A stretch of DNA of 64,000 nucleotides, from assembly GCA_028868375.1 (NCBI GenBank), contig JAGWUP010000008.1, positions 4,751 through 68,750 of the forward strand, read 5' to 3'. The notes under the pieces are model-generated. The model worked only from the letters and a program-made list of their open reading frames with translations. It searched no databases and had not been told where the DNA came from. Shown one piece after another: positions 3,101-59,176 of this stretch. The stretch's first letter is position 1. Each line of letters opens with the position of its first letter. The DNA comes from Elusimicrobiota bacterium. GTDB lineage: Bacteria; Elusimicrobiota; Elusimicrobia; UBA1565; UBA9628. The translations under genes were made by a program, and so were the position numbers.

Positions 3101-3344
3101 GGCCGATTACCTAGACGACGTGCTGAAAAATCCCGGGGCGAAGAAATGGCTCAACGTTCAGGACAGTTCGCAGAAAGACGATCCTGGCTTCACGCCCCCG
3201 TCCGTTGCCTTCCACTGTTTGAATACTAATGATAGTGCCGACTGGTGGGTTGTGGCGTCCGCCCCGCCCAGTTGGAAGCACATCGGGAGATTGAAGGCGG
3301 TTCCCCAGGATGACGGCACGACGATCCTTAAAACGGCGCCTTGA
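177..3344 (+). CDS. hypothetical large secreted protein (1055 aa), no recognisable catalytic motif
   Basis: Single uninterrupted 3.2-kb ORF. N-terminal signal-peptide-like segment (LSRIAWLACALLLGFAARA). Coding-like composition. The C-terminal 600 nt is lower in GC than the surrounding sequence. Confidence 0.6.
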   Translation: MSHDTPQSLSRIAWLACALLLGFAARARTAPPLPPMHAWAVIHAGPQVYYVDADKDGARYQRMLKHQFGGPISLYVEEQETAQGKLKTVKAPSHAALFCDGAGDDWACRIVVNKGSGGNFSVSVNINGKQPAIAPTLLAPAERRPEGIQRAVWAVVVNLGLKEKYWARAAGVLQQALDPKRNKNAAGLRAADATQMSALFSGILADLVKPDSPDKKIEKKMVQYLIANSPKAAAPPRPIVPKAHGAPVGPAAGKPEDKKKAEDNAINTLALLLKQRQPQADLAGRIMAYLKAPQGAAAFIELPQARREAGLKMLSGAVSAWVTRAAKTAQGRGKEAGLYYVLGDSPKAWFAGHPVLDALAKPNAALPDFDRKMAIFTVGGAKRAPANAGPFKGDMAWPAAMLETATEFARQAINDRRLAPQVKASVDTHDQGLPVPGGPGAPGGGLKRGFSARGFNVADLYEKGGVTQFWNIDGTEPPKHLISIRVYSKVSSWGPPPRISDRIGIFDINPDEFKHPSPVHHLVGQYFSLNQTGDSTFQLGSGKSGTFKLSMGADESISLVPVDSQSKEPISDPLTTSISALFAARKGLAASEGYYEKINGQGFRVIGQGGERGALLYYAVGADGRPLSDDPSLIAQVNEVSDGRTQPLSGDRPLGYVGMKADGKTPQAYGLAWNNETKTFDPKEIDSDALGDAPGASSTTVASSDGAPADKGTTADTDDDKGGAGKAGGGKAKKEEAGNGADVGGELAHCDYKEKPTDYPDAVWYHKPAAGWGHGWQFYTPQVPLNPKTNAVDYTMANATYICVYGKYMLFLSQGLVADGDISVEGDKDILDIRTAVPDADIKTKNLFIKPELLQKGLKVEGRTLVYGGGLRRPITSTVVPSTEYFIKLRDLKKLLQLWGDRSSVFAAGVKKVAWVSRNREWESAEASEAFTVYWRPQETRQEALADITEALKKFIPHVADENYCLKDGSLRPELADYLDDVLKNPGAKKWLNVQDSSQKDDPGFTPPSVAFHCLNTNDSADWWVVASAPPSWKHIGRLKAVPQDDGTTILKTAP

Positions 3345-6400: not shown

Positions 6401-9400
6401 CCATCGGCAGCACGGCGATCATGGGCCTGGTCTCGGGGGGGATGAGCGCCTTCACCTACGCCAGGGATCCCGAAACCTCGCGCTACGAGAACGCCGGGGA
6501 GGCCTTCATGCAGGGCCTGGCCCTGGGAGCCTCCTTCGGCTCCAAGGCCGGCATCATCACCCATATCAACCTGGTTCCCGTCTCCGCCTTTCGCGGGTGG
6601 GTCGGCGCCACGATGCGGACCGTCGCCGAGACCCCCGGGCCGGTCAGCCTGGGACTGCAGACCCTGGCCAAGGTGGTCCCGGGCTGGTCCAAGTCGATGC
6701 TGGCCGAGGCGGGGCCGCTGGGCGCCCTCTCCAACGGCGCCTTGGCCCTCAACCCCGTCCTCTACACCCTCGGCAAGGCGGCCGTCTGGGGCGGGGCGAT
6801 GATCGACGGCACCGTCAAGTACATCGGCATCGCCTGGCTGCCGCAGCAATTGGCCCAGGTCGGCATCATGCTGACGGGGCAGTTCAAGGACGCCCATGGC
6901 CACCGCGACGCGACGCTCGAGACGGAGGCGGGCGACACCGCCTTCATGGAGCGCCTGTCCGCGGCCCAGCAGTTCAGCACGAGCTTGGCCCAGTTAAGCT
7001 GGGTGCTGATGCCCTCCAACCCGGCCTTCAGCCACAAGGAGATCTCCGACCAGTCCCGAGCGGCGGCCGCCTTCAACCGAATCGCCCAGGACCCGGAACT
7101 GCTCCGCGTCGTCGAGTCGGCGCCGAAGGACTTCGCCATGCCGGTGGAGCTGCCCTTCTATTACCGCTCCCTGGGCGAGAACGCCCGCGCCGTCCTCGGC
7201 GCCGTTCCGCTGCTGGGCCGGGTCTTGGAGGAGCTGGGCCTGCGCAAGCCGGCCTCCACCGTCGAGTTCCAGGTCACCGAGCAGTGGCGGCAATTGGCCG
7301 CGCGGGAGAGGATGAGGAGGCGATTTAGCACCGCCGAGATCATGGCGATGGCGCTCATGCCCTCGGAGGCGGTCGGCCGGCTATTGGAGCGCTCGCGTCT
7401 GGGAGAGGTCCTGCGCGACCGCAAGGCCTTCATCGAGGAGTCCCTGGCCGACAAGGGCCCGCGCCGCGCGGGCGAGGACGGCCGGCCGCTGATCCTCACC
7501 CCCGCCACCCGCGATCCCGTCGACGTCCGGGTGTTCCGCTACCGCGATCCGGCCACCGGGCGCTGGCGGGACGCCCGGGAGGGTGAGGTCCGCCTGGTCT
7601 GCGCCGCGCCGGTGCCGCTGGGCCAGGCCAGGGGCCGCGATATCCTGGAGGTCGTCGATCCGCAGACCGGACACTGGGTGCCGGCGGGCACACCCGGCTC
7701 TCCCGCGGCGATGGTCCTTCCTTCGGCCAGGCCCGACCAGGTCCGCGTCACCAACGAGGCGATCATGGCGGCGCGCGACGAGCTGTCGGCGCGCTTGCGC
7801 GGGCGTTCCTGGCTGAAGAGGGCTTGGGACGGCCTGCTCGGCCGCGAGGTCTTAGACGGCGCGGCCTTGCGCGGCGAAATCCTCCTCTCCGAAGACGCGC
7901 TGGACTTGGGCAACGGCTGGCAACTCTCCGGCGAGCGGCTGGCGGACTTAAAGAAGGAGGCCGCCTTGGTCCAGCTCGACGCGATGCCGGCCACGCGCAA
8001 CCCGATCGCCTGGGCCCGCGACATGGTCCAGCGCGGCTTCGACACGGTGTTTAGGGGCCGCAAGCTGGAAAGCCAGCAGCAGCGCTGGATGCGCGGGCTG
8101 CGCCCGCAGGTGGAGGCCGACGCCAGGCGCCTGGCCGAGTCCGAGAAGGGCAGCCTGGGCGCGGTGCGCGAGCAGATCCTCGATCTGCTGGGCAAAAACG
8201 ACGACGGCGGCGACATCCTGACCGACGCCGGGGATCGCGCCGTCCTCCAAAGGGCGCTGGACGTCCTGGGCGGCCGCGGCCGCCTTTCCGACCGCCTGGA
8301 AAGCGCCGCTGTCCTGCTCGATGAGGCCGCCGCGCGCAAGGGGCAGGAGAAGGCCGGCCTGCCGCCGAACGCCTTCGCCAGCCTCTCGCGCTCACTGCGC
8401 GGCGAGGTCACCGCCGACTTGCTGATGACGGCCGCCCGCCGCCGCCTTCAGCGCCGCATCGACGCGGCGGGGCCGCTGGACCGCGCGGCCCTGGAGGCCC
8501 TGCGTCAGCCCCTGGAGACCGACGCGGCGCGCCAGGTCGTCATCGCGGAGATGCTCAGGACCTTCGGCCGCGACCGCCTGGCCGCCCGGGATGGGGAGCT
8601 GGACTCTGCCTCGGCGCGCGAGGGCGGCGAGCTCGACCGGGCCCTGGACCTTTACATGGACGTCTGGGAGCGCGCCGTCTTGGGCCAGATGGCCGGCGAG
8701 CGCGTCGCCGCGGTCAAGAACGGCCGCGATGTCCTCGAGTGGAGCATCCCGGCCCGGCGGCAGTTCAAGAATCGTTTCGGGGCGACCATCGGGGAGTTTC
8801 GCGCCTTGCAGAAGCGGGTGATCAAGGAGACCTTGGGCTTCTTCGCCGGCGGCTCGACCCTGGTCTTCGGCGCCATGCCCACCGGCTCCGGAAAGACGCT
8901 GACCAACTGCGTGCTGGCGGAGTTCCTAGACACCATGGCCCGCTCCCGGGGCCGCGACGGCGTGATCTATCTGACCACCAACCCCGACCTCGTCGCCCAG
9001 GCCTACGAGGACTACGTCGGCTTCTTCGGCAAGAAGCCGCCCTTCGAGATCATGACCTACAGCGACCTGTCCGCGCGCGTGGCCCAGGCCAAGGAGCAGG
9101 GCCTGCCCTCGCCGCTGGAGCGCAATTATCTGATCGGCGACGAGGGCGACGCCCCGGCCGGCCAGGTGCCGACCTCGGTGGGCGTCTTCAACGGCCGCAT
9201 GAGCAAGGCCCGCATCGATCCGGTGCAGCAGGCGATGCAGGGCGTCGCACGGCGCTTCGCCGACGGCGACCCCGCCTTCTGGGCCGAGGCGCGCGCCGCC
9301 CACGGCCTGGGCGGCGAGGGGCCGGTGGAGGGGCCGCGGTACGAGGAATTGATGAAGGACGAGGCCTTCCGGCAGCGCATCCTGGAGGGCGAGGGCGGGG

Positions 9401-11196
9401 GCTTCCGGCGCCTGCAGGCCCACTACGGCCTGACCGGGGTGATCGACAAGGATGCCTTCAGGAGGCTTAAGAAGAACGAGGCCTTCATGCGCGACTTCGA
9501 GGATTACGTCCAGGAGGCGGCCGAGGCCATCCGGGAGGCCGCCGTGACCTTGCGCAGCAAGAGCTTCCGCGACGGCATAGACCTGACCCAGTATCCCGAC
9601 TATTACGCCATGGCCGGGGGGGACGCCCAATTGGCCCGGCGCCGCTTGCAGGACCGGATGATCGAGGAATATGATCATATGGTGGCTTCCGCCAAGGCGC
9701 TGCACGGCAGCCTGGAAGGGCGCATGAGGATGTTCCTGGAAGGCGGCATGGAGTTCGCAAGCCTTCCCGAGCGCTCCAAGAAGATCGTTCCCGATCCGGA
9801 CGTCGAGCGGGACGTCTTGAACTTCAACAACGGCATCGCCTACGACAACTTGAGCACGCCGGTCGGCCCCTTCGGCTCCGCCTACTTCGGCCGCAACATC
9901 TCCAACGAGTTCGAGTCGGCCGGGCAGCTCAACTTCGCCCAGTTGATCGAGGAGGCCGTGGCCAACAAGGCGGTCTTCTTCTTGACTTCGGGGACCTGCC
10001 CCTTGAAGGTCCGCGAGCTTTTCCAGGGGCGCTACAGGGCCAAGTTCACCGGGGAGGTCTCGATTCCCGATCCCTTCGAGCCGCGCCTGGCCACCGGGGA
10101 GCTGGCCCAGGTGCTCGACATCGACGCCAAGATCGCGGACGCCAGGGCCGGCGAGCTGCAGATACAGTACGTCCACACCCTGCCGGAGCAGCAGGAGGTC
10201 CTGCGCTTGCTGGAGGAGCGCGGCGTCGACATGAGCCGCGTCTCGGTGCTGGTGCGGCCCGCCTCGGCCCTCGAGAAGCAGGAGCGCCTGGACATGGGGG
10301 TGCGCGCCGAGGCCAACGCAGAGGGCTTCAAGGGCCACAACGTGGACTTCGTCCTGCTGGTCGGGGCCGCCGGCCTGCGCGGCCTGGAGATGAACCTGAA
10401 GGACTACGCCGGGCGCTCCGCGCGCATGGACATACTCGACCCCCAGGAGCTCGACACGGGCAGCTTGACGCAGCTGATCGGCCGCCTAAGCCGCGGCCGC
10501 GCCTGGATGCTCAATGTGCGGCGCTTCACCAGCGTCACCCGCCTGGAGCGCCTGGAGCGCTCCGTCATCCTGCCGCAGGCGGCTGGGGATCTGGCCGGCC
10601 TGGTGGCGGAGGCGGCGTCTGACCGTTCCCCGACCGTCCAGGAAGCCGCGCTCAGGCTCTCGCAATCCATTCGCGCGGACTCGCCGGTCAATCCCATGTC
10701 GGTGACGCCGCAGGACATCATCGAGGCCGTGCAGCGGCACGACGCGGACACGCAGCGCTTCCTGCGCGCCGCCGAGGAGGGGAGGGGCGAGGGCTTCGTC
10801 GCCCAGCGCAACGATCTCTACGACCGCATCCTGCTGCCCATGCTCAAGAATCCCAATCTACCCACGCGGATCACGCGCTACCTGGATTTGATCTCCGAGG
10901 TCGGCCTGCTGCGCCGGGGCTTGAGCTCCCGGCAGCTGGAGTCTGTCCTCGGCGCCTCCGACCCATCGGCCGCGGCGATCCGGCTGTTCAGCGACCCGGC
11001 CGTCCTCTCCCAGCCGGGAGTGCTCGACGTGCTCATCGCCAGCCTCGGGCGCCGCGAGCAGGACCTGGCCATACAGTCCTCGGGCATCCTCGACGAGAGC
11101 AGGCCCTCCGCCCAAAACGGCCCGACGCTGGGCAAGCTGCTGCGGCCCGGCGGCTTGCGGGCCGTGACGCCGCGGGCCCTTCCCGGCCTTCCGTGA
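3409..11196 (+). CDS. giant protein (2595 aa): signal peptide, long helical N-terminal region, hydrophobic/Gly-rich core, embedded SF2 DEAD-box-like helicase core
   Basis: 7.8-kb ORF. An alternative start at ATG 3445 (MKAALCLILSAALILSSGGTSLLA) gives a cleaner signal peptide. Hydrophobic segments lie around aa 880-1200. Helicase motif I is AMPTGSGKT (8872-8898), motif II is LIGDEGDA (9139-9150), motif V-like is VGAAGLRGLEM, and motif VI is QLIGRLSRGR (10471-10500). Confidence 0.7.
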   Translation: MAEGHPACYTRCMKAALCLILSAALILSSGGTSLLAKPVTHWDPLYRRLRVSDDGASTPIARVARMIEHLPPKLRAAALQIGGDQRLSQAERERALAFLVRYRPALAGDQKAAKEIDATLHDLRDPEIDPGLTLARMFDHLSRTARMAERDRTDVQWEGDPSHEATAVVSNSLIGNTTFIQHTVRKDADNSIRTITRPADPDDPSSPQQLEAVVLEQRRGADTLQRVCYNRRIHVLLRNLRKLYYDQCSLVRRVNNGELLLQDTPCQDAKGWRDEKLTPEVRRKLQAFYDGNRRRFPPELLDYLDYLDRMEKQGRLGNLRDWRKLQSMQRLALAFYNDNQLQVYQRAVIMEITNYFSQLTGVQPKQKRGEEMLDIGARKLEDFQRLLDQFHKGRMEGYSSWLAELGFSKLDIKNRRDATSQAMDIVSEAFADVAYAYQAQQRLLDPDAELSGAERDAAIAETSQWLQLAQIQVTRFEMLTESTSLDHLAAGTLRGIGIQRYDEQMKGQARRLASAARRQYYPAIAQASRQAKRELLRQTVSELFTTFNAASTSWQFRRPLREKLRLLAAKADQLLQLYLSAQFEAARDNPSFQRDFTESQRVEGSEYAYFLSHLPANCRHVRELVSSLKEGLLALLKEREVGSVRQGLAPLRARFAAVARAIFGDGDIPTPLQIQRESQALSVRQGRLFAAAAQFANKMRLFDAINELDIYVDKYADNTKWLQTENDGFWTQLTSFQWLNYAFGKVPGREAAADAMLRNAHIDATLPLLGEVRVDYRRAFEELRGHPERRFKIDQALREGRFDDAYRLVAKIDPEGAQKAEKEARLDKLDEDPADLLDLDGLMSHQYQDTAQTRALGSIQGAFVQLPKLITGYALATAVTDTVISAVASAAIMPVAPVLLGGLGEATLGVGRFVELVPALDETASVGRMTRIIHGIASLFNAGSWAVEYPGKVMISTARTARKAIGMAAPLEERSAWVQAAAMYLPGSGLYANVACASIGSTAIMGLVSGGMSAFTYARDPETSRYENAGEAFMQGLALGASFGSKAGIITHINLVPVSAFRGWVGATMRTVAETPGPVSLGLQTLAKVVPGWSKSMLAEAGPLGALSNGALALNPVLYTLGKAAVWGGAMIDGTVKYIGIAWLPQQLAQVGIMLTGQFKDAHGHRDATLETEAGDTAFMERLSAAQQFSTSLAQLSWVLMPSNPAFSHKEISDQSRAAAAFNRIAQDPELLRVVESAPKDFAMPVELPFYYRSLGENARAVLGAVPLLGRVLEELGLRKPASTVEFQVTEQWRQLAARERMRRRFSTAEIMAMALMPSEAVGRLLERSRLGEVLRDRKAFIEESLADKGPRRAGEDGRPLILTPATRDPVDVRVFRYRDPATGRWRDAREGEVRLVCAAPVPLGQARGRDILEVVDPQTGHWVPAGTPGSPAAMVLPSARPDQVRVTNEAIMAARDELSARLRGRSWLKRAWDGLLGREVLDGAALRGEILLSEDALDLGNGWQLSGERLADLKKEAALVQLDAMPATRNPIAWARDMVQRGFDTVFRGRKLESQQQRWMRGLRPQVEADARRLAESEKGSLGAVREQILDLLGKNDDGGDILTDAGDRAVLQRALDVLGGRGRLSDRLESAAVLLDEAAARKGQEKAGLPPNAFASLSRSLRGEVTADLLMTAARRRLQRRIDAAGPLDRAALEALRQPLETDAARQVVIAEMLRTFGRDRLAARDGELDSASAREGGELDRALDLYMDVWERAVLGQMAGERVAAVKNGRDVLEWSIPARRQFKNRFGATIGEFRALQKRVIKETLGFFAGGSTLVFGAMPTGSGKTLTNCVLAEFLDTMARSRGRDGVIYLTTNPDLVAQAYEDYVGFFGKKPPFEIMTYSDLSARVAQAKEQGLPSPLERNYLIGDEGDAPAGQVPTSVGVFNGRMSKARIDPVQQAMQGVARRFADGDPAFWAEARAAHGLGGEGPVEGPRYEELMKDEAFRQRILEGEGGGFRRLQAHYGLTGVIDKDAFRRLKKNEAFMRDFEDYVQEAAEAIREAAVTLRSKSFRDGIDLTQYPDYYAMAGGDAQLARRRLQDRMIEEYDHMVASAKALHGSLEGRMRMFLEGGMEFASLPERSKKIVPDPDVERDVLNFNNGIAYDNLSTPVGPFGSAYFGRNISNEFESAGQLNFAQLIEEAVANKAVFFLTSGTCPLKVRELFQGRYRAKFTGEVSIPDPFEPRLATGELAQVLDIDAKIADARAGELQIQYVHTLPEQQEVLRLLEERGVDMSRVSVLVRPASALEKQERLDMGVRAEANAEGFKGHNVDFVLLVGAAGLRGLEMNLKDYAGRSARMDILDPQELDTGSLTQLIGRLSRGRAWMLNVRRFTSVTRLERLERSVILPQAAGDLAGLVAEAASDRSPTVQEAALRLSQSIRADSPVNPMSVTPQDIIEAVQRHDADTQRFLRAAEEGRGEGFVAQRNDLYDRILLPMLKNPNLPTRITRYLDLISEVGLLRRGLSSRQLESVLGASDPSAAAIRLFSDPAVLSQPGVLDVLIASLGRREQDLAIQSSGILDESRPSAQNGPTLGKLLRPGGLRAVTPRALPGLP

Positions 11197-13990: not shown

Positions 13991-14130
13991 ATCAACATCT
14001 AAATTAGTTAAACTCAGGCACTAAGCTGGCGTAGCCGGCTTGCGTCTGACCGCAGGGAATGGTTTGACTCCGAAGAATTCGGGAAGAAAACCATGGCCGG
14101 ATAGGGAAAATGCGTCAGGCCATGACGTCC

Positions 14131-14349
14131 GGCGCTGCCACGCAATAACATGAACATTCTGGAGGCCCGAGCTTGAGACGATTTCAAGGCGCGAAGAGAG
14201 GGCATGGCGGTAGTCATGCGGGCGATGAGCAACGCGGAAATCGGCCAACCTCGGGCTTCCCCACAGAGCCGGGCCGTTTTTGGGCTGCGCCTTCGTCGCC
14301 CCGCTCCAAAATCGCGCACGGCAGAGCGACCATCTTATTGCGTGGCAGC
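14131..14349. repeat. ~219-bp element bounded by a perfect 18-bp inverted repeat (GGCGCTGCCACGCAATAA ... TTATTGCGTGGCAGCGCC); MITE-like or structured-RNA element
   Basis: Arms at 14131-14148 and 14332-14349 are exact reverse complements. The interior is lower in GC. The right arm ends 5 nt before the transposase-like ATG. A related element is at 58934-59153. Confidence 0.5.
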
Positions 14350-14354
14350 GCCTA

Positions 14355-15257
14355 ATGGGCCGCCCCCAGCGCTTGCAGCTTCCGGGAGCTTGCTATTACG
14401 TGCTGCTCGAGGGAAACAACAGGCAGGATCTCTTCCTGTCGAGCCAGGACCGCCGCCAGTTCTTGGCCCTGCTGCGCTCCTGCAAGGAGCGCCACGAGCT
14501 GAAGGTCTACGCCTATTGCCTGCTGCCGCAGAAGGTCCACTTGCTCGTCGAGACGGACCGGCCCAACCTCGCCGCCGCCATGCAGAACCTGGGCAGCGTC
14601 TATACCAAGCGCTTCAACGCGGCCCACGATGTCTCCGGGCACCTTTTCGCGGGCCGCTACAAGGCCTGGCTGCTGGACAAGGAGCGCTTCCTGGCCGAGG
14701 CCACGCGGGCCATCCACCTGCAGCCCTCGCGCTCCGGCCTCAGGGACAAGCCTTGGCGCTACCCCTGGTCCAGCTGCTCCGCCTACGTGGAGTCCGAAGC
14801 GGGGGAACCCCTGATCGATTCCCAGCCCGTCCTGGCCCTGTTCGCCTCCGGGCGCCTGAAGCAGTCGGTGCGCTACATGCAGTATCTCAAGGACAGGCTG
14901 AAGTCCTCTTCCGCCGTCTTGCTGCCGGTGGCCCGCGGCCAGGTCATCGGCGGAGAGGAGTTTCTGGCGCGCATGCGAGCCAGGGCCGGGCGAGTCGAGC
15001 CGGCCCGGCCATCCCCGGAGGCGGAGCGCCAGGTCCTGGCGGAGGTCGCCAAGCGCCACGGCCTGGAGCCCGAGGAGCTGACGGGGCCCGGCCGGCGCCG
15101 CAGGGTGGCGGCCGCCAGGCGAGAGGCGGCCTACCGTCTGTCCAAGGAATTGCGCCTGGGCGTGGCCGAATTGGGGCGCCTGTTCCACCGCACTCCCAGC
15201 GCGCTCTGCCAGGCCCTGCGGACGGCTGAAATATCAACTAAAAAACTTAACTCCTGA
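14355..15257 (+). CDS. IS200/IS605-type Y1 (HuH) transposase-like protein fused to a DnaA-C-terminal-like HTH domain; HuH motif degenerate (K-V-H)
   Basis: N-terminal YYVLLEGNNRQDLF, then VHLLVETD, then a Tyr-region YTKRFN, match the Y1_Tnp fold. The C-terminal VAAARREAAYRLSKELRLGVAELGRLFHRTPSALCQALR resembles the DnaA C-terminal DNA-binding domain. The first His of HuH is replaced by Lys (14532-14540). Confidence 0.6.
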   Translation: MGRPQRLQLPGACYYVLLEGNNRQDLFLSSQDRRQFLALLRSCKERHELKVYAYCLLPQKVHLLVETDRPNLAAAMQNLGSVYTKRFNAAHDVSGHLFAGRYKAWLLDKERFLAEATRAIHLQPSRSGLRDKPWRYPWSSCSAYVESEAGEPLIDSQPVLALFASGRLKQSVRYMQYLKDRLKSSSAVLLPVARGQVIGGEEFLARMRARAGRVEPARPSPEAERQVLAEVAKRHGLEPEELTGPGRRRRVAAARREAAYRLSKELRLGVAELGRLFHRTPSALCQALRTAEISTKKLNS

Positions 15258-15265
15258 CACTGACC

Positions 15266-15293
15266 CTAGGACCTAAAATAGCGTAGGTCCTTT
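15266..15293 (+). promoter_or_regulatory. AGGACCTA-N8-TAGGTCCT inverted repeat including TAGGTCCTTTA, ~65 nt upstream of the 4939-aa gene
   Basis: Read directly: ctaggacctaaaatagcgtaggtcctttaatatc. The same TAGGTC(C)TTT decamer occurs at 122 and 3371. AGGAGGAG lies further downstream. Confidence 0.35.
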
Positions 15294-15358
15294 AATATCA
15301 GAGGAGGAGCCAAGGGTTCCTACCGCTTTGGCGCCGCCAAAGCTACTCTAAGGGCCTG

Positions 15359-18300
15359 ATGAAGCGCCTGCTGCGCCAGGCCGTGGCCTGCCTGACCGTC
15401 GCCAGCCTGCTGATCACGGCTCCCGGCCTGGGCCTCTACAGCGCTCTAGCCGCCCAAATGGGGGAGGCGGCCGGCGATATCCCCGAGGGCCTGCCGCCGC
15501 GATTGCCGGGCTCGCCGATCGGCCCGGCGGGGGGCGTCGGCATTTCGGCGCAAGCCGCGGCGAATTGGCGGCGGCGTTTGGATGCGGCACGAGCCCTTGG
15601 AGGAGCCGGCGCCGTTTCCCAACCGGCCCCGCCCCAATCGGCCCAATCGGCACCTGCTCAAGCCTGGCGATCGCTACGAGCGTCGGTCGCCGCGGGCTTG
15701 GTCCCGCCGGGCCAGGGCGGGCGGCAGGCGGCTGCGTCTCCGGCGGCTGCGGCGCAGAGCGGCGCAAGCCCCGAGGCCGCGTCGGGATTGGCGGCCAGGC
15801 TGTTCGACCACTTGAAAAATCTGGGCGGCGGACTGCGCCGCTTGGTGTTCGATTCCGAGGAGGAAGAGCCGGCGGAGGAAGTGCCAGCGGCGGAAGTGCC
15901 AGCGGCGGAAGTGCCCGCTGCGGAGGGGCGGCGGTCGCCCGCTTTAGCGCCCGCCCTGGCGCCGGCATCCGAGCCGGATCCAGCGCAGCCGGAGCCGGCG
16001 CAGCCGCCGGCCGTTGCGAAGCCGGTCGGCGCCAGGCATTGGCTGGGAGCCGCGGGGATGACGGCCCTGTCCGGGGCGATCACCTGGAAATTCGGCGCGC
16101 CGAAGCTGGCGGGCTGGGCCGCCGCCTTGATCCACGCGCCGGCCGCCGCCCCGGCGATCGCGGTGGCGCTGACGGCGCTGCTGACTTACAGCACCGCCAA
16201 GCAGCAGTTCGGCGCGCTCTTGGAGCGCCGCCGGGCCCATCGGCTGGCCGAGATCCGCGAGCGGGAGGGCGAGCTGGCCGCGGTCGATTGGGAGCTGGAG
16301 CAGGCGCCCCGTCCCGCTCCCAACACGGCGCCGCACGAGATCGTCGGCTTGGCCTTGATCGTCGCGGCGGCGGCGGCGGGCCACGCGCTCTGGAGCGGCC
16401 CGGGAGCGGTCGGGGGCTTTCTGCTGGGGGCGTGGTTCTCGGATCGTTGGCTTAGCTTGCGACGGGATCGTTTCAAGGAGGACCGGCAGAAGCGCGACGA
16501 GCTCTTGCGCCGGCGCAAGGCCTTGGGCGGCTCCGAGGCGCAAGAGGCCTCGCCGGACGGCCCCGTCGCGGACGCGCTCGAGCCGCCCCTGGGCGGCTCG
16601 CCGCCCAGGGGCCCTCCCGCCGGGCTGTCGCCTCCGGGAACGGAGCCCTCAGCGGCTTCGCAAGGTCCTCGCGTCTTCGAGGACTTTTTCGGTTTTAGGT
16701 GGGTGCGCGGCCGGCTCCACGAGCCGGCCGCCGAGCCCTCTTCGGGACGGCTAGAAACGCTGACGGCCGGAGCGTTGATCCTGGGCTCGGCCTTCGCCGG
16801 CTTCGCCGCCTTCGGCCTGCTTGGGGCGGCGGGGGGATTGGTCGCGGGCTACGCCCTGGCCTTCCATCGGCAGGCCCGGCTGGCGCGCGGCAGCGCCCGC
16901 GAGGTCCTGCCGCTGTCGGCCACGACGGAGCAGGTCATTCGGGCGCTGGCTCGGGACGGGGGCTGGACGCGCCAGCGCTTGCTGGAATTGATGGCGCCCT
17001 TCGGCTTGGGCGAATCCAGCCCGCTCGACGCTTGGCTGGCGGTCCATGATTGGCTGCGCGTCCACGGCGACCGCGAGCAGTTCAAGCGCTTCGACCATGA
17101 GAAGTCCGACCATTCCTGGCGCGAGCTGGCCAATGTCCGCTACAGCGAGGGCCGGCGCGGCGCGCTCGAACGCCTGGCCGAGGTCCAGAAGCATTCCGCC
17201 GGGGCCTTCGTCCGCTTCCCGTACCATCTCTTCGACCTGTTCGTGCTGGGCTATTTCCGGCAGAACATGGCCTACGAGCTGTTCCATTCCGGGGAGGATT
17301 TCCTGGGCGCCCTCCAGCCGGGCCTGCGCGAGAAATACCTGCTCCATGCCGCAAGCCAGGCGGTGGCCGCGCGCGGCTTCAAGCGCTCGCTGCGCGCCCA
17401 GCCGATCTACCGCGCCTTGGACCGCTACCTGTGGACGCCGTGGCTGGGACCCCTGGGGCAGTTCTTGTCGCGCCGCCTGACCCTGGCCGTCGCCTCGGCG
17501 GTGGCGATGGGGGTGCTGGGCGGCTTGGCCCCGGTGCTGACCGTCTTCGGCCTGCCGCTGTTGTCTCTGTCCTTGACCACGATCCCGCTGCTGGGCCCCG
17601 CCCTCATCGCGATCGTCAACGCCCTCCCGGTGCTGGTGGGCTGGCTTCCGTTCTGCGGCCATGCCCTAGCCCCGGTGGCCGCGGCCGCCGCGCAGAAGCT
17701 CTTGGCCGACCTGGTCGTAGGCCCGATGCTCAACACCCTGATCCTGTCGAGCTTCCTGACCTTCCCGCACGCGGTGCGCCAGAGGCTGGCCGAGCTGGAC
17801 GCCGCCGACCCCGCCCGGCGCCGCGGCCTGCGCTCCCAGGAGCTCTGCGCGGCGGCGCTGGCCGTGGCCTCGTCCTCGGCGTACTGGCGCGCCAACTTGA
17901 AGTCGTTCCTGGCGATGATGACGGTCGGCGCCGAGATCGAGGGCATCATGACCTACGCGGACGTCGCCGATCAGGCGGCCAGCGCCGTCAGCGGCGCGCA
18001 CGTGACGCTGTTCCACGCCCTGGGCTCGGCGGTGGAGCGGCCCCGCGGAAAGAGCCTGATCCCCTTCGGCGGGGCGATCACCTGGGGCAACGTCCTGCTT
18101 TACAAGGCGCAGAATTGGCTGGGCTTCAACCTCTCCGACGCGGTGGCCCATGGCGTCTCCGTTTTCATCGGAGACCGGCTGCCGGGGGTGGTCCATGCCC
18201 AGACCCTGCTGGCCGTGGCCGAGGGGCGCTACCGCGGCGCCCGCGGCCCCAAGCCCGCGCCCTTCGACAAGACCCTCTATCGCAAGTCTCCGGGCCAGGT

Positions 18301-21300
18301 CTGGCGGCGCTTGAAGGACCTGGCCAGCCGCGGCGGCGACCTAGAGTCCCGGATCGCCCAGGCCAAGGCGCGGGCCGAGGCGGCGAGGCGGGAACTGGCG
18401 AGCGAGCGCAAGCGCTTCGCGGCGCTGGAGGCTTCCCTGCCGCCCTCGGTGACCCCCGCCCAGCGCGCCGAACTGGAGCGCTTGAACGCGCGCTACGCCT
18501 CCGCCCGGGACGAGGACTACGCCCGCGGCAAGCTGGCGGAGGACGGCGACCTGGCCGCCGCCCCGGACGCGGCGCGGCTGGCGCGCTTGCGGGCGCTCAA
18601 GCAGAGTTACGCGGACGATCTGGTGGCGCGCGACGGGCGGCGCCCGGCCGTCTCCGACGCGCTGGCCGCGCGCCGGGCCCAGCTGCTGGCGCTGGAGCGC
18701 AGCCTCTCCTCCGTCGTGGAGAAGGGGACGGTGGCGCTGCCGAATGGGACGGCGGCCCGCCTGCCGGACGCCACCGTGACGCAGATCGCCCAACTGGTCA
18801 AGACGATCGAGGACCTGCGCTCCCAGGCCAAAGGGGAAATGGCCAACCGCGACGCCGAAAGCCGGCTCTTGGGAGTGCTCGCGCAGGCGCGGCACAACGC
18901 CCTGCGCGAGCGCCGCAACGGGCGGGGGATGAGCGATTTTCACCGCAACCTGGCGCGCCTGGACACCGTGATGAGCCTGGCCCTCTCCCTCAACGAGATC
19001 GCGGCGGCCGAGCAGGCCATCCACCAGATGATGGCCCTGCTGGACGCCAAGATCGCCAAGATCAACGCCGCCGCGCAGCAGAACCAGCAGAACCTGGCCC
19101 AGGCCCAGCAGAATCAGCAGCAGACTCAAAAGTGGAAAGACGAGGCCAACCAGGTCATCAGCGCCGACCAGAGCACCCAGAAGACGATCGTCGACTACGA
19201 GAACCGCACGGCCCTGGCCGCGGAGCGCGTCGGCTCCTTCCAGCACGACCTCTCCGCGCTGATCGGCGTGATCAACGCCCGCGACGGCGGCCAGAGCCGC
19301 GACGCGCTGACGGAGTACGCGCGGCGCCTGGCCCTGCTGCCCCAGGTGGCGGACTGGCGGACCAACGGCAATCCCAACGATTCCTCCGCATTCTCCCTGA
19401 AGACCTTCCAGGACGACCTCTCCCAGGTCGACGGCTATATCCAAAAGGTCCAGGACGGGATCGGGCAGCTGCGCCAGACTCCCCTGGAGGCGGCCGGAGT
19501 GGCCATCATCCTGGTGCCTGGGCCCGACGTGACGATCCACAATCCGACCAAGGAGCAGACGCTGCAGATACTGGCCGACCGCAAGACCTATTGGCAGAGG
19601 CAGTCCCAGCAGTACCGAGACGACCTGGCGCGGATCAATCGGATGATGGATCCGGGCAACACGAACACGACGACCGACGAGTTCGGCGATTCCGCTCCGG
19701 AGTCGCTGCCGCGCTACCTCAGCCAAGAACAGGGCATCGAGCAGACGGCGCGGGCCAATGTCCAGCAGTACGCGGCCCAGATCGACGCGGCCGCCGACCA
19801 GATCAACTCCGTGGCCGGCTCCAACCTGCCCCATCTCTCCGGCCTGCCGCTCGACCAGCTTGAGAGCGTCATCACGAATTACGGCAACCTGGCGCGCGCG
19901 GTCAAGCTTCCGGACAGCGGCGGCAACGACGCGGCCTACCTGGCCTCGATGAACATGCTCTCCTTGGCCAAGCTCATCCCCTACGCGGCCGACAACGTGG
20001 TCCAGTGGGCCAAGGCCGACGCGACGATCACCTCGATCAACTCGGCGATGGCCACGACCCTGCCGCAGGCCAAGACGCGCCTGACGGCCATCGTCCAGGT
20101 GTTCGACGACGTCCTGGCCGACGACGACGCCGACGTGGCCTACGTCACCCATGGCGGCGACCCGCAGGCCCTGCTTAACCGCAAGATCGATCTGCTGCAG
20201 AACAAGGTGCTGCCCGCGCTGCAGGGAGCCGACGATCTGCTGCGCAACGTGCTGATTCCCTACCAGCGGCAGAGCATCGCCCAGGTCCAGGTCGACGCCT
20301 CGGCGCCGCTCTACCAGCTTCTGACCAGCCAGCAGACGCTGGCCCAGAGCGTCTCGCAGCTCTACAACTCCGACGTGGCCTGGGCCCTGGCCAGCTTCGG
20401 CGGCAGCAAGAGCGACCCCGCCGGCAGCCGCGCCAGCATCGCGGCCTGGAAGAAGACGATCGAGCAGAACTTGAACGGCTACGACGACGCCCAGGGCCAC
20501 CATGAGGGCGTCAACGAGTACATCGTCGAGGTCCAGCATCGCAAGGATCCCAACTACGCGGGGCCGGAGACGACGGACTATTTAAAGGACCCCAACTATC
20601 CGGACGGCGGCCCCTTCAGCCTGCCGCGCAAGATCGCCCTATACTCCGCCGAGCGCGCCCAGCGCGTCGCCCAGCTCAACGCCCAGGACGCCCAGATCAA
20701 CGACATCCTAAGCCATATCGAGACCGTCTCCAAGGGGCGCTACAACCTGCAATCCTTCCGCCTGCCCACCGACCTGACCGGCGACGCCGCCGGCGCCAGC
20801 CGGGCCCAGGCGCTGTTCGACTCCAACCTGATCCAGAACCTCGGCGGAGAGCTCCAGCAGATCGCGGCCGACAACCAGTCCTCCGGCGCCGGAATCTCGG
20901 TGGCGGACCAAGGCTCGGCCGGGCCTCCGACCGGCACGCAGCCGCCGATCACGGCCTCCGACGCCCAGACCCTTTCCCTGCTGGCCTTGGACGCGGCCAA
21001 GCGCATCGTCCCGTCTTCCTTGCAGCAGCCGCAGACCGCGCCGGCCTCCTACGCCTTGGCCCGCTTGCTCTACTCCAACGGCACCCTCTCGGCCGCCCAG
21101 GACGCCCTGACCAACCAGATCCCCGTGGCCGAGACGGTCCTGGCCCATGCCCAGGCGGTGCTGACGGCGGCGGACGACACCAGCAAGGACGAGGCCTACG
21201 TCGACTCCAATGGGACCAGCGAAAGCGCCGACTCCGTCTACGCGCGCAAGGTGGCGCTTTTTAGCAGCCTCAACGCCTTTTTGCAGGAGGGGGCCAACTT

Positions 21301-24300
21301 CTTCAACCTGAAGGGGCAGTGGGACATGGCCTCGCTCAACACCGTCGACCAGGTCTCCCAATATTACGGCGGACTGGGCACGATCTACGGCGGCGCCTCC
21401 AGCACCACCAGCGGGGAGCTGCAGGCGGCCACCCAGATGAAGGCGGCGCTGCAGACGACGCTGGACGGCCTGGAGCAGAGCAGGACCAAGGTCAAAGGCT
21501 GGATGTCCCAGCTCGACGATCCGCACGACAGCGCCCTGGCGCGCGTCAGCGAATCGGTGGCCACCCTCCAGGACCAGACCCGCAAGGTCCTGGAGGCCAA
21601 CGTCCAATGGCAAGGCGTCCGAGACCAATTGCGGCGCAGCGACGATATCGTCGCGGCCAAGTTGGGCGAGCTCGACGAGGCCCAGCAGCGGCTGGTCCGC
21701 CTGCTCGACCGCCCCGACGTCAGCGGCGGCGGCTTGCCGCCGGACTTGATCAACCGCATCGAGGCCCTCCGTCTGGCCGGCGGAAGCTGGGCCTGGGGCG
21801 GCTCCGACGGCAGTCCCGAGGCGATCGCCGTCAAGAAATCGGACTTCGGCGGCTTCGTCGAATCTCTCCTTGACGCCCTGGGCGCGCGCGGCTCCTCGGA
21901 GAACCTGCCGCTGTTGCGCCAGGACCTGCTCTCCAACCCCGGCGGGCTCTCGGCCCTGCTGCCGGACGCCAAGATGCTCGAGTTCGGCGGCGACGACGGC
22001 TTCTACTTGATCTATCAGTCCCGCTTCTCGGTGCCGAACGGCCTTGAGACCGGCACCGACGTCACCCTGGGCAACGCGGCGCGCCTGGGCGGCAACAACA
22101 TCTCGGTGGGGGGCTACCAGCTCGCCAGCCAGCCCAGCGACGCCAGCGCCCCCTACGGCGACAAGGGGGCGTGGGTGCAGGTGGAAAGCCTGCGGGGCAA
22201 GAACTGGGTCAACTACCTCAACGTCGACCTGCACCGCTTCATCTTCGACATCCCTCCGGACGCCAAGCCGATCTCGCAATTGCGCGAGAGCCGCCTCCTG
22301 GTCTTCGACGACTTCGCCATGCTGCTCTTCGGCGACCGCCTCTACGTCGGCCTGGCCGGCTTCGCCGACCGGGCCGTCGACCAGCCCGGCCAGCACCCGT
22401 CCTATTACGGCGGCAACCTCAAGACCTCGATCCGCCTCAACGGGGTCATGCGCCTCAACGCCGAGCAGAGGGAGCTTTTCGCCAACGATCCGCGCAAGTT
22501 CCTGGAGACGGTCAACCTGGACTTCACCGGCTTCGATCCGGACTTAAACCAGACCTTCGCCATCCAGGCCCACGGCGACAACAAGCATTACTCGCGCACC
22601 CAGGTCGGCCCCAGCTTCGACGTGGGCAAGCTCTTGGGCAGCAAGGACGCCTTCACACTCGACCTCTACTGGGCCAAGACGACGGGCAGCGACGACATCC
22701 ACCAGGAATCGCTGGGCGTCTCCATCCTGAAGGGCTTCACCCTGGCCGACGCCGACGGCAAGCCCTGGGCCGTCATCGACAACCAGGCCAACGCCGAGCT
22801 GGGCCAGCAATACCCGGCCTACCGGGACCGCCTGTCGGTGACCCTGCCGCGCCAGGGCATCGTCGTCAGCGGCCAGGGCCAGATCCTGGGCCCCACCAGC
22901 GCCTATTACGGTGAGATCTCGAAGAGCTTCGGCGACCACTCGACGGTGAGGGTGGGCTACGGCTCGCGCTACGTCGGGATCAAGGACCGCCTGTCGCTGG
23001 AGATGAACACCTCCTTCACCCTGCGGCAGCTCTATGAAGCGGTGCTCGCCCACGGCCGCTCGCAGCTCAAGGGAGGCCGGCAATTAAGCCGCTTCAACAC
23101 GGATATTAAGAACTTCTTCGACTCCGACCGGGACGGCGGCGGCTCGGGAACGCGCGTGGAGGCCTTGCGCCGCGTCTTCGATCAGGACGTGGGCCGCAAG
23201 CTGCTGACCCAGGACATCGGAACCTTGCGCCGGGACATCGACCAGTTGCGCGGCGCGGGCGCCTTCCTTGATAACACCCGCGTGCAGGGGATGATCGGCT
23301 TCATCTCCAATCCCGTCTCCAGCGACCAGGCCGACGTCACGGTCGGCGGAGGCCCGGTGGCCGCCACCCAGACGGAGCTGACGCTGACCCGCTCGCAGAA
23401 GGCGCTGATCCAAGCCAAGACCCAGGCCCTGTTCTTGGACGGCCTGCGCCTGCAGCAGCGGCTGCTGGAGCTGTCGCGGCGCTGGCAGGAGGACGTGGCC
23501 CAGATCGCGCGCGCGCAGTGGGACTTGAAGCTGGCTTCCTTCATGCGCCAGAACGCCGGCACCGAGGCCCTGCGCCGCCAGGCGGGAGTCCTGGCCGCGG
23601 ACGCCTCGGACCGGCTGCACCAGGCCCTGCTCGACTATAACGCCTTGTCCGGCCGCTCGCCGGACGCCCCGGTCCCGTTCAAGGATCTCAGTGCCTCCGA
23701 CCTGCGCGAGCTGACGGCCGCCATCCGCGGCACGCTGTCCGGCGGCGACCGCCTCAAGGCCATCCTCCACGAGCTCGATCCGGCTCAAATGAAGGAGCGG
23801 CTGGGTCCGGAGGCCTTCAACCTCCTCGACTGGCTGCCGTTTCTCGATCGCATGACGCTGAGCATCGGCGCCCAGCTTCAGGACTCCCTGGCCAACCAGG
23901 CGATGACCGTCGGGGTCAGCTTGCGCATACCGGTCTACGATCCCTCCTCCGGGCACGCGGACAAGGCCTACCGCCTGGAAAGCCGGGCGACGATCGCCCA
24001 GATGGCCGAGCTGCAGGCGGAGCGGCGGCTTGAGGCCGATCGCCAGGACGCGCAGGCCCGGCTGAGCGCCGGACAGGCCAAGGCCGCCCAGGCCGGCCTG
24101 CCTCGCGCCGCGCGCGCCTTGTCCTTGGCCATTCGAGCCTACCGCAACGGCTTGATCGGCGAGGCCGAGCTGCAGCAGGCCTTCGATACCTGGCGCTGGT
24201 ACGCGCGCGAGGCCTTGGACGGCGAGATCGAGTCCTCCCTGTCCGCCGCCTGGGCCGCCTCCGGCCGATACCTGGCCGGCTCGACGGACGACGGGAATGG

Positions 24301-31499: not shown

Positions 31500-31550
31500 T
31501 CCGGGCATGCGCTCGCTCTCCGGTCTTCGGCCGAGCGTCCATGTTATTAC

Positions 31551-32117
31551 TTGACAGCGCCTTACGTCCTCACCTTCTTTCTGATCAACGCGTCGATCTG
31601 GACGGCCATGCTGCTGCCGGGCAGCGCGGGCTCGCCGCAGGCCTTCCTCCAGAACGCCGTCGCGCCGATCCTCTGCATCGCGCCGATCCTCTGGGTCCAA
31701 TACCGCCTGCTCGCCCGGATATTCCCCAACGTGCTTTTGGAGATTCTGGTCCAGTACGCCTCCTTCGCGCTGTTCATGTTTCTCAGCGGCTTTCTGATGT
31801 CGATAGGCCAGCAGGTCGGCTCCAGTTCCGCCCGCAATCCCCTGGGCTGGCTCGACGGCGGCCTGCGCGTCGCCCTGCTGGGGCAGTTTATCGGGATCGT
31901 GCCCTTAGAATTCAGGGATACGCGCCGCCGAGAGGGGCGGACGGGCGCTCGGCGCAACCCCGAGAAACGCCTTCTGTTGGTCCGCCGGAGCCAGCAGGCC
32001 CAAGATCGTCGAGCCGTCCTCCTGGCGCTCCGGCTTGACCGGCGGGCGATAGGCGGTCCTGACGTCGGCGTCGGCCGTGGTGACGACGTAGCCCCAGGTG
32101 GCGGGGTTTCCGCTTAG
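31551..32117 (+). CDS. possible small membrane protein in a low-GC island; the last ~70 codons overlap the convergent gene and look non-coding
   Basis: The first ~125 aa are hydrophobic with non-local codon usage (TFFLINASIWTAMLL...). The R-rich tail overlaps 31905-32117 of the minus-strand gene. Confidence 0.25.
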   Translation: MTAPYVLTFFLINASIWTAMLLPGSAGSPQAFLQNAVAPILCIAPILWVQYRLLARIFPNVLLEILVQYASFALFMFLSGFLMSIGQQVGSSSARNPLGWLDGGLRVALLGQFIGIVPLEFRDTRRREGRTGARRNPEKRLLLVRRSQQAQDRRAVLLALRLDRRAIGGPDVGVGRGDDVAPGGGVSA

Positions 32118-44766: not shown

Positions 44767-44838
44767 GAGCCCGTAGCTCAGGGGTAGAGCACGCGCCTTT
44801 TAAGCGTGGGGTCGTGGGTTCGAATCCCACCGGGCTCA
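44767..44838 (+). tRNA. tRNA-Lys (anticodon UUU)
   Basis: Acceptor GAGCCCG/CGGGCTC. Anticodon stem CGCGC/GCGTG with loop CTTTTAA. T-arm GTGGG-TTCGAAT-CCCAC. No encoded CCA. TATAAT at 44751-44756. Confidence 0.85.
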
Positions 44839-44854: not shown

Positions 44855-44926
44855 GCCTCCATCGTCTATCGGCTAGGACGCGGCCCTTTCAAGGCTGAAA
44901 GAGGGGTTCGACTCCCCTTGGAGGCA
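44855..44926 (+). tRNA. tRNA-Glu (anticodon UUC)
   Basis: Acceptor GCCTCCA/TGGAGGC. Anticodon stem CGGCC/GGCTG with loop CTTTCAA. T-arm AGGGG-TTCGACT-CCCCT. Confidence 0.8.
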
Positions 44927-58144: not shown

Positions 58145-58943
58145 GCGGGCCCGCGTGCGGGTCAGCCTGCGGCCCAGGCAGCGCCGGCGCCGCAATCATC
58201 TGGCGCTGGCCCTCGCCGCGGCGGCGCTGCTGGGGGTCGCGGCCGCATCCGCCCTGCGCCACGACGCCGGCGGCATCGACGGTTCCTTGGCACGCTTGCA
58301 TCGCGCGCTTACGCCGGCCGCGACACGGCTGGAACTGTCCTGCCCCATCGAGCGCGTCCGCCGTTCCGCAGCCGGGCTCCTCGCCTCGCGGGGCCGGCTG
58401 TCTCCCGCCGCGGCCGCCGCCGCCATCCGGCGGAGCTTCCCGTATCTGCGCGTCGTCGTTCGCCGCCATTGGCTGCGGCGCGCGGCAAGCCTGGAGCTGT
58501 CCCTGCGCGCGGCCGTGGCCGTGACGGCCGCCCCGGGAGCGCGCCGGGACTATCTGTCGGACGACGGAATCGTCTTCGGCGCGCCGGGGGGGCTCTACGC
58601 GCTCGCCGCTCCCTTGGTGGAGACCGCGCGGGCCTCCCCGGCCCAGTTGCGCGAGGCCTCGGCCATCTGCGAGCAGGCGGCCGAGCCGGGCGCCCTTCCC
58701 TCGCCGCTCCAATCCCTGCGCCTGGCCGCCTCTCCGCAGGACGGCTGGGCGGCCCGCTTGGCCGACGGCACCGAGGTTCTTTTCGGGGACGGGCGCTGGC
58801 TGGGCCAGAAGTTTTCCAGGCTCAATCAGGTCCTGGCCGACGCGCGCGCGCGCCCCGCCGTGGCGCCGCCCTTCACGGCGGACTTGCGTTATTTCGGGGA
58901 CGGCAAGATTCTTCTTCGACCTTTAGGACCTGCGTCGCAATAA
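58137..58943 (+). CDS. ftsQ: cell division protein FtsQ/DivIB-like (N-terminal TM + POTRA)
   Basis: Position between murB and ftsA. TM LALALAAAALLGVAAASAL. POTRA-like IRRSFPYLRVVVRRHWLRRAASLELSL. GTG start overlapping murB by 8 nt. Confidence 0.6.
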   Translation: MSRRARVRVSLRPRQRRRRNHLALALAAAALLGVAAASALRHDAGGIDGSLARLHRALTPAATRLELSCPIERVRRSAAGLLASRGRLSPAAAAAAIRRSFPYLRVVVRRHWLRRAASLELSLRAAVAVTAAPGARRDYLSDDGIVFGAPGGLYALAAPLVETARASPAQLREASAICEQAAEPGALPSPLQSLRLAASPQDGWAARLADGTEVLFGDGRWLGQKFSRLNQVLADARARPAVAPPFTADLRYFGDGKILLRPLGPASQ

Positions 58944-59153
58944 TATGATGATTTTGGACGGGCGCTTTTGTAGCGAGACAAGGAGCGACGAGCGATGTGG
59001 GCGCAACCCAAAAGCGTCCGTCCCCTTCGGGGCGACCCGATGCCGGCCGATTTCATCGTTGCTCGTCGGTCACATGGCCTGCGGCCATGCTCCCTCCTCG
59101 CGCCTCGAAATCGCCACGGACTCGGGTCGCCAAAATGATCATATTATTGCGAC
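58934..59153. repeat. ~220-bp element bounded by a 24-bp near-perfect inverted repeat (GTCGCAATAATATGATGATTTTGG / CCAAAATGATCATATTATTGCGAC) in the ftsQ-ftsA intergenic region; contains nested stems and a CCCC-UUCG-GGGG tetraloop hairpin
   Basis: 23/24 complementary arms. The left arm overlaps the ftsQ TAA. It shares the CGCAATAAYATGA...TCATRTTATTGCG termini and its length with the element at 14131-14349. Confidence 0.5.
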
Positions 59154-59176
59154 GCAGCTCCTTAGCGAGGTGATCG

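Follow-up and report, generated by a model that had tools for sequence, protein, structure and literature searches.

What is the small repeat that stands directly in front of a transposase-like gene, and again between ftsQ and ftsA, in a metagenome-assembled genome (MAG) of the Elusimicrobia? We addressed this question in a 64,000-nucleotide stretch of that genome (GCA_028868375.1, contig JAGWUP010000008.1, positions 4,751 to 68,750 of the forward strand), which carries housekeeping genes and is called the window hereafter; positions without further label are those of the window. A preliminary description, made from the letters alone, had reported two loci bounded by inverted repeats and had offered three identities for them: a transposable element of the miniature inverted-repeat type (MITE), a palindrome-associated transposable element (PATE) or a structured RNA family. 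The answer that we reach is that the two copies—e1, adjoining a gene for a protein with a Y1 transposase domain and a DnaA_C-type helix-turn-helix (the Y1/DnaA_C gene), and e2, between ftsQ and ftsA—together with a solo arm at a third locus form a new family, and a genuine one, within a familiar class of elements, the MITEs. We consider it likely that this family is lineage-restricted and non-autonomous, with non-coding copies of ~222-236 bp that target TTA/TAA (TWA) and are moved in trans by an IS5/PIF-Harbinger-like enzyme.

Two opposed copies and a solo arm

The first finding of this study is that e1 and e2 are copies of one element lying in opposite orientations. Inverted-repeat arms are present at both loci, and the placement given in the preliminary description, beside the transposase-like gene and between ftsQ and ftsA, holds. 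The loci that it named are right but their extents (14131-14349 and 58934-59153, 219-220 bp) are not: the copies measure 222 bp and 236 bp, and their termini align base for base (GGCGCTGCC.../GGAGCTGCG... and ...GGCAGCGCC/...CGCAGGTCC). A covariance model, R1, was built from e1 and e2. The features are as follows.

14131..14352, + strand: element copy e1, 222 bp, reference orientation; R1 score 247.6 bits
14131..14161, + strand: e1 left terminal inverted repeat (TIR), GGCGCTGCCACGCAATAACATGAACATTCTG
14162..14261, + strand: e1 internal hairpin 1, ~100 nt; kept in e2 with five two-sided compensatory changes
14268..14325, + strand: e1 internal hairpin 2, more variable; 14-nt insertion in e2
14322..14352, + strand: e1 right TIR, 2 nt upstream of the ATG (14355) of the Y1/DnaA_C gene
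58926..59161, - strand: element copy e2, 236 bp, opposite in direction to e1, in the last ftsQ codons; R1 score 278.2 bits
58925-58957 and 59130-59162: e2 arms, 33 nt each, counting one extra flanking base per side
31528..31561, + strand: solo right-arm fragment in an intergenic spacer, followed by TTA

Aligned as e1(+) against e2(-), the copies are homologous over their whole length (168/225 positions, 75% identity), and local alignment of the interiors alone reaches z 18.9 against shuffles. The interior similarity claimed earlier is therefore strong, but in an orientation that had been overlooked: in the same orientation it is not significant (z 2.2), and the interior word AAATCGCNCACGG, thought to be shared, is not true homology, an indel being required to fit it to e2. 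Likewise, the consensus TCATRTTATTGCG proposed for the right end fails for e1, which has CCATCTTATTGCG. The TIRs are 31-33 bp long and of the form GGnGCTGCnnCGCAATAAnATGA. Those of e1 (31 nt) are 84% complementary, with the 18/18 perfect outer positions reported before, and those of e2 (33 nt, the extra flanking bases included) are 94% complementary. The core TTATTGCG is invariant in all four arms, and the exact motif CGCAATAANATG is found in the 64-kb window at these four arms only. Both copies are indeed AT-richer than their surroundings (62.6% GC in e1 and 59.2% in e2, against 69.3% in the window). Neither codes for a recognisable protein: open reading frames (ORFs) across the element lie in different frames in e1 and e2, are not conserved and have no Pfam match, and the longest of them, a spurious one of 79 aa in e2, has no homologue among 5.8 billion proteins.

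The solo arm matches the e1 right arm at 29/35 positions (score 46; shuffles mean 23, sd 3.4, max 37) and is nearer to it than the e1 left arm is. For this fragment there is neither a partner arm nor a significant fold. That it might mark a place where genes kept by a relative were deleted was considered and dropped, the flanking proteins being non-homologous. The hexamer ACGTCC lies directly left of e1 (14125-14130) and also directly right of the solo arm after its TTA (31564-31569), a coincidence for which we have no explanation and which no rearrangement model that we tried fits. The three loci form a coherent gradient of decay: in e2 the arms and the target duplication are intact, in e1 the arms have decayed and one copy of the duplication is gone, and the third locus is a remnant. 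With arms 84% complementary and no recognisable target duplication, e1 is the older-looking of the two full copies.

Empty sites in relatives

The second finding is that both full copies are insertions. In the three closest relatives found (FtsA 89%, 85% and 82% identical), ftsQ stops 1-3 bp before the ATG of ftsA, whereas in the window 233 bp separate ftsQ from ftsA, and the sequence just 3' of e2 restores the old end of ftsQ, in overlap with the Shine-Dalgarno site of ftsA.

58941..58943, + strand: present ftsQ stop codon TAA, within the e2 terminal repeat (CGCAATAA)
59162..59176, + strand: remnant of the 3' end that ftsQ had earlier, with the Shine-Dalgarno site of ftsA; TTAGCGAGGTGATCG stands ahead of the ATG and aligns with ...CTGAGGTGAC-ATG of the relatives

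To judge from these junctions, e2 appears to have replaced the last ftsQ codons, changing the tail of FtsQ and supplying its stop, and to have left the ftsA ribosome-binding site intact. Genes that abut in relatives would also be parted by a very stable hairpin of ~230 nt (-125 kcal/mol as RNA), and if e2 is transcribed its 33-bp stem could be a processing site uncoupling ftsQ from ftsA, by analogy with the Correia and ERIC repeats. A protein identical to the FtsA of the window (P0121) is encoded on an NCBI contig of 180 kb.

At the other locus, neither blastn nor the covariance model detected e1-like sequence in the seven orthologous Y1/DnaA_C loci. Two of these have the same upstream TrkA-type channel gene, and their spacers are 44 and 88 bp long against 364 bp in the window. 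In the start regions of the orthologues, an extended -10-like box (TGCTAnnAT) precedes the ATG by only 7-10 nt and a Shine-Dalgarno sequence is missing, a combination that suggests leaderless mRNAs; the ortholog at locus L007 is an exception, with a leader containing GGAGAG.

L005, ~3305-3319: -10-like box
L006, ~9985-10000: -10-like box
L038, ~1462-1481: -10-like box
L039, L041 and L009: -10-like box also present

In the window e1 occupies the position of this box, and next to the start codon of the Y1/DnaA_C gene there is neither a Shine-Dalgarno-like sequence nor a -10-like box. The insertion would thus part the gene from its ancestral, leaderless-type promoter and has probably lowered its expression. 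The identical locus is present in GCA_028865065.1.

A fold kept on both strands

Each full copy folds as a ~30-bp terminal stem closing a three-way junction with hairpins of ~100 nt and ~60-75 nt. The folding and covariance analysis suggested earlier proved rewarding, the predicted energies being far below those of shuffled sequences: -111.1 kcal/mol for e1(+) (z -5.7) and -133.6 kcal/mol for e2(-) (z -10.1). The opposite strands are nearly as stable (e1(-) -110.2 and e2(+) -125.3 kcal/mol), so that z lies between -5.0 and -10.1 across both strands, and pairs are almost all G-C or A-U, with only 1-4 G-U on either strand. In the two-sequence alignment there are 71 shared pairs, of which 100% are paired; nine are changed on both sides and none is broken. 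In a control in which partners were slid by 1-3 columns, pairing fell to 35-44%, with 0-2 two-sided changes. At least one further compensatory pair, in hairpin 2, is missed by the alignment. Pairing has thus been preserved through 25% sequence divergence, and its strand symmetry points to a palindrome at the level of DNA rather than to a strand-specific RNA. Most likely, the whole-length fold would be upheld because only symmetric copies stay mobile or are tolerated inside transcripts. Two other readings were tried and rejected. A hammerhead-like GAUGAG...GAAA in hairpin 1 has the wrong spacing and no Rfam support, and for an attC-like site there is no integrase and the ends do not fit.

Target site and putative mover

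The third finding concerns the target: insertion is at TTA/TAA (TWA), and e2 shows a duplication of 3 bp.

58923..58925, + strand: e2 target-site duplication, left copy, TTA
59162..59164, + strand: e2 target-site duplication, right copy, TTA

The flanks of e2 (TTA|...|TTA) are a direct repeat, the one complete duplication observed. Since they read TTA...TTA and not TTA...TAA, they do not extend the inverted repeat and are target sequence. The solo arm has TTA on its right. At e1, the target-site check proposed in the preliminary description gave TCC on the left and TAA on the right, with no recognisable duplication. TTA or TAA stands at four of the five observable flanks, a bias with P = 1.5e-9 at the frequency of these triplets in the window (0.42% of positions) and P = 5e-7 at their frequency in low-GC context (1.8% of positions). 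Such sites are rare in a genome of 69% GC and cluster at gene boundaries. It may be for this reason that e1 adjoins the Y1/DnaA_C gene, whose start codon (TAATG) would have offered one of the few AT-rich spots available.

Some bacterial IS5-family groups make 3-4-bp TNA/YTAR duplications. PIF/Harbinger elements, which have a transposase similar to that of bacterial IS5, are described as being marked by TIRs and a 3-bp TTA/TAA duplication (PMC2213677). A duplication of this kind beside TIRs, as found at e2, leads us to infer an enzyme of that type. Movement would be catalysed in trans by a cut-and-paste DDE transposase recognising the terminal repeats, and this IS5/PIF-Harbinger-type enzyme would be encoded elsewhere in the genome or have been lost.

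Several searches bear on how far the family extends. A pattern scan for paired termini across 185,579 species genomes gave 22 hits, all with unrelated interiors, and the same scan of JGI metagenome contigs gave three unrelated hits. Since the two copies described here were not among the hits from either collection, both collections lack the source genome, and the scans are uninformative on copy number within it. An arm scan of IMG/VR viral contigs yielded 30 single hits, which is the chance level, and blastn against plasmids and phages gave no match. R1 detected no further copy either in the window or among 12 related loci; the other hits were short GC-rich hairpins of at most 16 bits. In assemblies of three independent sequencing runs the contigs all break off at one base, element position 39 of e1. 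The inverted repeat of the element is too imperfect there to account for a break in the assembly graph, and these shared ends hint at other copies or variants.

Several points weigh against the family and the mover that we propose. First, only two full copies and one fragment have been seen, all in the 64-kb window; the preliminary description had named further copies and similar interiors as the test of a family, and it is the similarity that was strongly borne out, with a single fragment added to the count. Second, e1 has no duplication on its left side. Third, an autonomous partner sharing these TIRs did not emerge from the paired-termini scans, which required 170-200 bp between arms and could not have detected a full-length insertion sequence (IS); a parent IS would be marked by inverted pairs of the family's terminal-repeat sequence, GGNGCTGCNNCGCAATAA. 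Neither the window nor the loci retrieved from relatives contain a transposase gene with a DDE domain. Fourth, with two sequences, the changes that we call compensatory may also stem from homogenisation of the palindrome arms at the level of DNA, and a DDE mechanism alone does not account for pairing kept beyond the termini, in the interior hairpins. Finally, any resemblance of the arms to the IS5 terminal repeat, GGAAGGTGCGAATAAG, would be loose and would need gaps, and is a lead only.

The neighbouring gene as a candidate mover

The position of e1 invites a different explanation, that the element resembles a REPIN or TIR repeat and that a Y1 (HUH) tyrosine transposase moves it in the form of single-stranded, folded DNA, with e1 lying beside the cognate gene as in the RAYT and TIRYT systems.

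14355-15257, + strand: Y1/DnaA_C gene, 300 aa; orthologues at loci L005, L006, L007, L009, L038, L039 and L041

The architecture of the encoded protein makes this explanation attractive. Its Y1_Tnp domain scores 60 bits with NCBIfam REP_Tyr_transpos, below the cut-off of 80, and its C-terminal, DnaA domain-IV-like helix-turn-helix (Bac_DnaA_C) scores 28 bits in Pfam and hits DnaA structures in a profile search (PDB 2hcb, E 2.6e-6). A Y1 domain with a DnaA_C-type domain is the architecture of subclass 2.1.2 (PMC6006769), which is probably the TIRYT class, and the TIRs that flank TIRYT genes can form dispersed repeat families with single and dimeric units (PMC3733652). The element itself would suit recognition as a DNA hairpin, being foldable throughout, with Watson-Crick pairs on both strands, few G-U pairs and compensatory changes, and the lack of a target duplication at e1 also counts in its favour.

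The protein, however, no longer has its catalytic residues. The HuH and Y---NP motifs define the class-2 Y1 enzymes (PMC6006769); in the window protein these read K-V-H and A---QP, the first histidine of HuH, the catalytic tyrosine and the metal-binding asparagine all being lost. In an alignment of 110 homologues—102 members of the Elusimicrobia clade (47-63% identical) and 8 outgroup sequences (30-34% identical)—H-u-H is kept in none of the 102 clade members, the tyrosine in 57 and NP in one, whereas HuH and Y are present in 8/8 of the outgroup. Conservation is nonetheless strong in the remainder of the protein, and the gene is single and syntenic, following genes for Wzy_C and a TrkA-type channel and preceding one for a protein of 4,600-5,900 aa. 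We read the product as very probably an exapted transposase domain rather than a nuclease. Since neither it nor its clade retains HuH, the protein is unlikely to move the element. A literature search found no report of this non-catalytic Y1/DnaA-type protein.

The arrangement of the sequences around the gene also speaks against the RAYT and TIRYT models. The element is absent from 7/7 orthologous loci. Both e1 arms lie upstream of the gene instead of flanking it, and nothing arm-like lies downstream. The arms are not self-complementary in the manner of REP (repetitive extragenic palindromic) sequences, and neither the GTAG tag at the ends nor GGGGWSAS is present. A different motif, TTAAAGCCTGRCACC, occurs both upstream and downstream of orthologues (L039, L041, L038, L007 and L009), partly within palindromes. 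Its sites in the window, at 14007-14024 and 15246-15263, rank fourth and fifth in a matrix scan trained without them, and the element arms, which are unlike it, rank 40th or lower; TTAAAGCCTGRCACC is possibly the true recognition site of the Y1/DnaA_C protein family. The duplication of TTA at e2 points the same way, as do the flanks, for which a TWA duplication is a better match than a one-sided target. On the loss of catalytic motifs in the 110-homologue alignment and on the matrix scan we reject the REPIN/RAYT or TIRtron hypothesis, and movement by a Y1 enzyme at large strikes us as unlikely.

Just 3' of the stop codon of the Y1/DnaA_C gene lies a hairpin (15267-15300, TAGGACCTA-N8-TAGGTCCT, then TTTAAT), and TAGGACCTA is also found 3' of the L005 orthologue (~4217-4245). 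The 8-mer TAGGACCT, which forms the left junction of e2 (58924-58931), recurs in this hairpin, probably a case of a terminator plus chance.

Readings as a structured RNA or a set of operators

We turn to the proposal that the element is a structured non-coding RNA family, of small RNA genes or cis-regulatory leaders, with the three-way junction as the functional unit. The very stable folds and the nine two-sided pairs with none broken would be expected of such a family, and transcription through both copies is probable, one occupying the 5' leader of a gene and the other the spacer between ftsQ and ftsA. But the Rfam scan proposed in the preliminary description gave nothing relevant to the element, either at gathering thresholds across the whole window or at E up to 10 at both loci, where the two hits were noise (13-14 bits against cut-offs of 50-65). 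The copies are opposite in orientation with respect to the flanking genes, so that co-transcription would read opposite strands, and scans for sigma-70 promoters and terminators found no signals bracketing either copy. Folding about equally on both strands with so few G-U pairs is typical of DNA palindromes, the orthologous loci of all sampled relatives lack the element, and a target-site duplication, TWA-biased flanks and a solo-arm remnant are features of an insertion more than of an RNA gene. An RNA family is for these reasons an improbable identity.

We think it similarly improbable that the fold and the TTATTGCG cores are functional rather than selfish leftovers, whether the element is single-stranded DNA moved by a HUH enzyme or a set of operators for the Y1/DnaA helix-turn-helix protein. 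The specific version in which the arms, whose core TTATTGCG starts like a DnaA box (TTAT...), are operators through which the dead protein controls its own gene via e1 and ftsA-ftsZ via e2 is the least probable of all, for while the protein keeps its helix-turn-helix and its conservation outside the catalytic residues, one copy lies directly at its own start codon and the core is invariant in 4/4 arms, the core fits the DnaA box TTWTNCACA (PMC6006769) in its first half only, orthologues keep the protein with a different flanking motif and no such arms, there are two sites only, and insertions, duplication and a conserved interior are left unexplained.

Comparison with known families

The MITE reading rests on short, non-coding copies, TIRs, insertion polymorphism with empty sites in related genomes, the intact TTA duplication at e2 and TTA/TAA-biased flanks, and it is the one of the three identities first offered that stands. 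The closest counterparts in bacteria are the Correia/NEMIS repeats of Neisseria and the ERIC repeats of enterobacteria, which are short, non-coding, TIR-bounded sequences between genes or at their ends. Like them, the element described here occurs in either orientation, may be co-transcribed with its neighbours, forms long hairpins, is present or absent among relatives and has a short target duplication. It differs in having no sequence similarity to them, in its host phylum (Elusimicrobia), in a duplication of TTA (3 bp) in place of TA and in a three-way junction with two internal hairpins where theirs is a single foldback.

With the PIF/Harbinger-Tourist group (PMC2213677) and the related bacterial IS5 family it shares TIRs and a 3-bp TTA/TAA duplication, and miniature non-autonomous derivatives are common in that group. 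The differences are that the TIRs here are 31-33 bp long, against 14-25 bp there, and that neither a DDE transposase nor a full-length element was found in the sequences searched.

REPIN-RAYT systems (Bertels and Rainey; PMC3116915) also combine a small, hairpin-forming, lineage-specific repeat with a single-copy, vertically inherited Y1 gene. They differ from the element described here, which has no REP hairpins or GTAG, has a target duplication, adjoins a catalytically degenerate Y1 protein lacking HuH and Y---NP and is missing beside the orthologues. The TIRYT/TIRtron families (Di Nocera et al. 2013, PMC3733652; Quentin et al. 2018, PMC6006769) offer a neighbour with the same two domains, and single and dimeric units comparable to the two "dimers" and one "single" seen here (PMC3733652), but in the window the arms do not bracket the gene, GGGGWSAS is missing, the motif flanking the orthologues is a different one and the protein is catalytically degenerate. 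PATEs, finally, are small, non-coding and rich in hairpins too. As derivatives of IS200/IS605 elements, which have subterminal hairpins but neither TIRs nor target duplication and which insert 3' of a fixed tetra- or pentanucleotide, they do not accommodate long TIRs, the TTA duplication of e2 and flanks that are not one-sided, and the adjoining Y1 gene, without catalytic residues, gives the PATE proposal no support.

Other features of the window and its relatives

Three giant genes or ORFs lie on the + strand of the window, and two adjacent tRNA genes on the same strand.

15359-30178, + strand: giant gene, 4,939 aa, no Pfam family on record, conserved beside the Y1/DnaA_C gene in relatives
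3409-11196, + strand: giant gene, 2,595 aa, weak ResIII helicase match
45015-50927, + strand: giant ORF, 1,970 aa, glycine-rich, with repeats ~290 nt apart (families D2, D4, D5 and D7)
44767-44838 and 44855-44926, + strand: tRNA genes, Rfam 72.5 and 56.4 bits

At L006, from a related Elusimicrobia genome, perfect palindromes of 15-32 nt occur around the Y1/DnaA_C orthologue and elsewhere, for example TTACGCAACACTGGTGTC/GACACCAGTGTTGCGTAA. They may be a different, REP-like repeat family of that lineage.

L006, 9897-9933: palindrome
L006, 9965-9979: palindrome
L006, 10888-10937: palindrome
L006, 19147-19214: palindrome

Implications

A TWA-targeting element in a genome of 69% GC is steered to gene boundaries, and e2 shows where this can lead: it is a natural experiment on how much disruption the normally tight ftsQ|ftsA junction of the division/cell-wall cluster tolerates. 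That the assembly breaks at the same base of e1 in three runs is relevant to MAG quality. There is also a warning for annotation, in that proximity to a "transposase" alone would wrongly have suggested a REPIN-RAYT system. The most interesting by-product of this study is that gene itself, catalytically dead, strongly conserved and endowed with a DnaA-type helix-turn-helix. Should the operator version after all be true, an exapted transposase and its dispersed former substrate would make up a regulatory circuit reaching ftsQ-ftsA-ftsZ.

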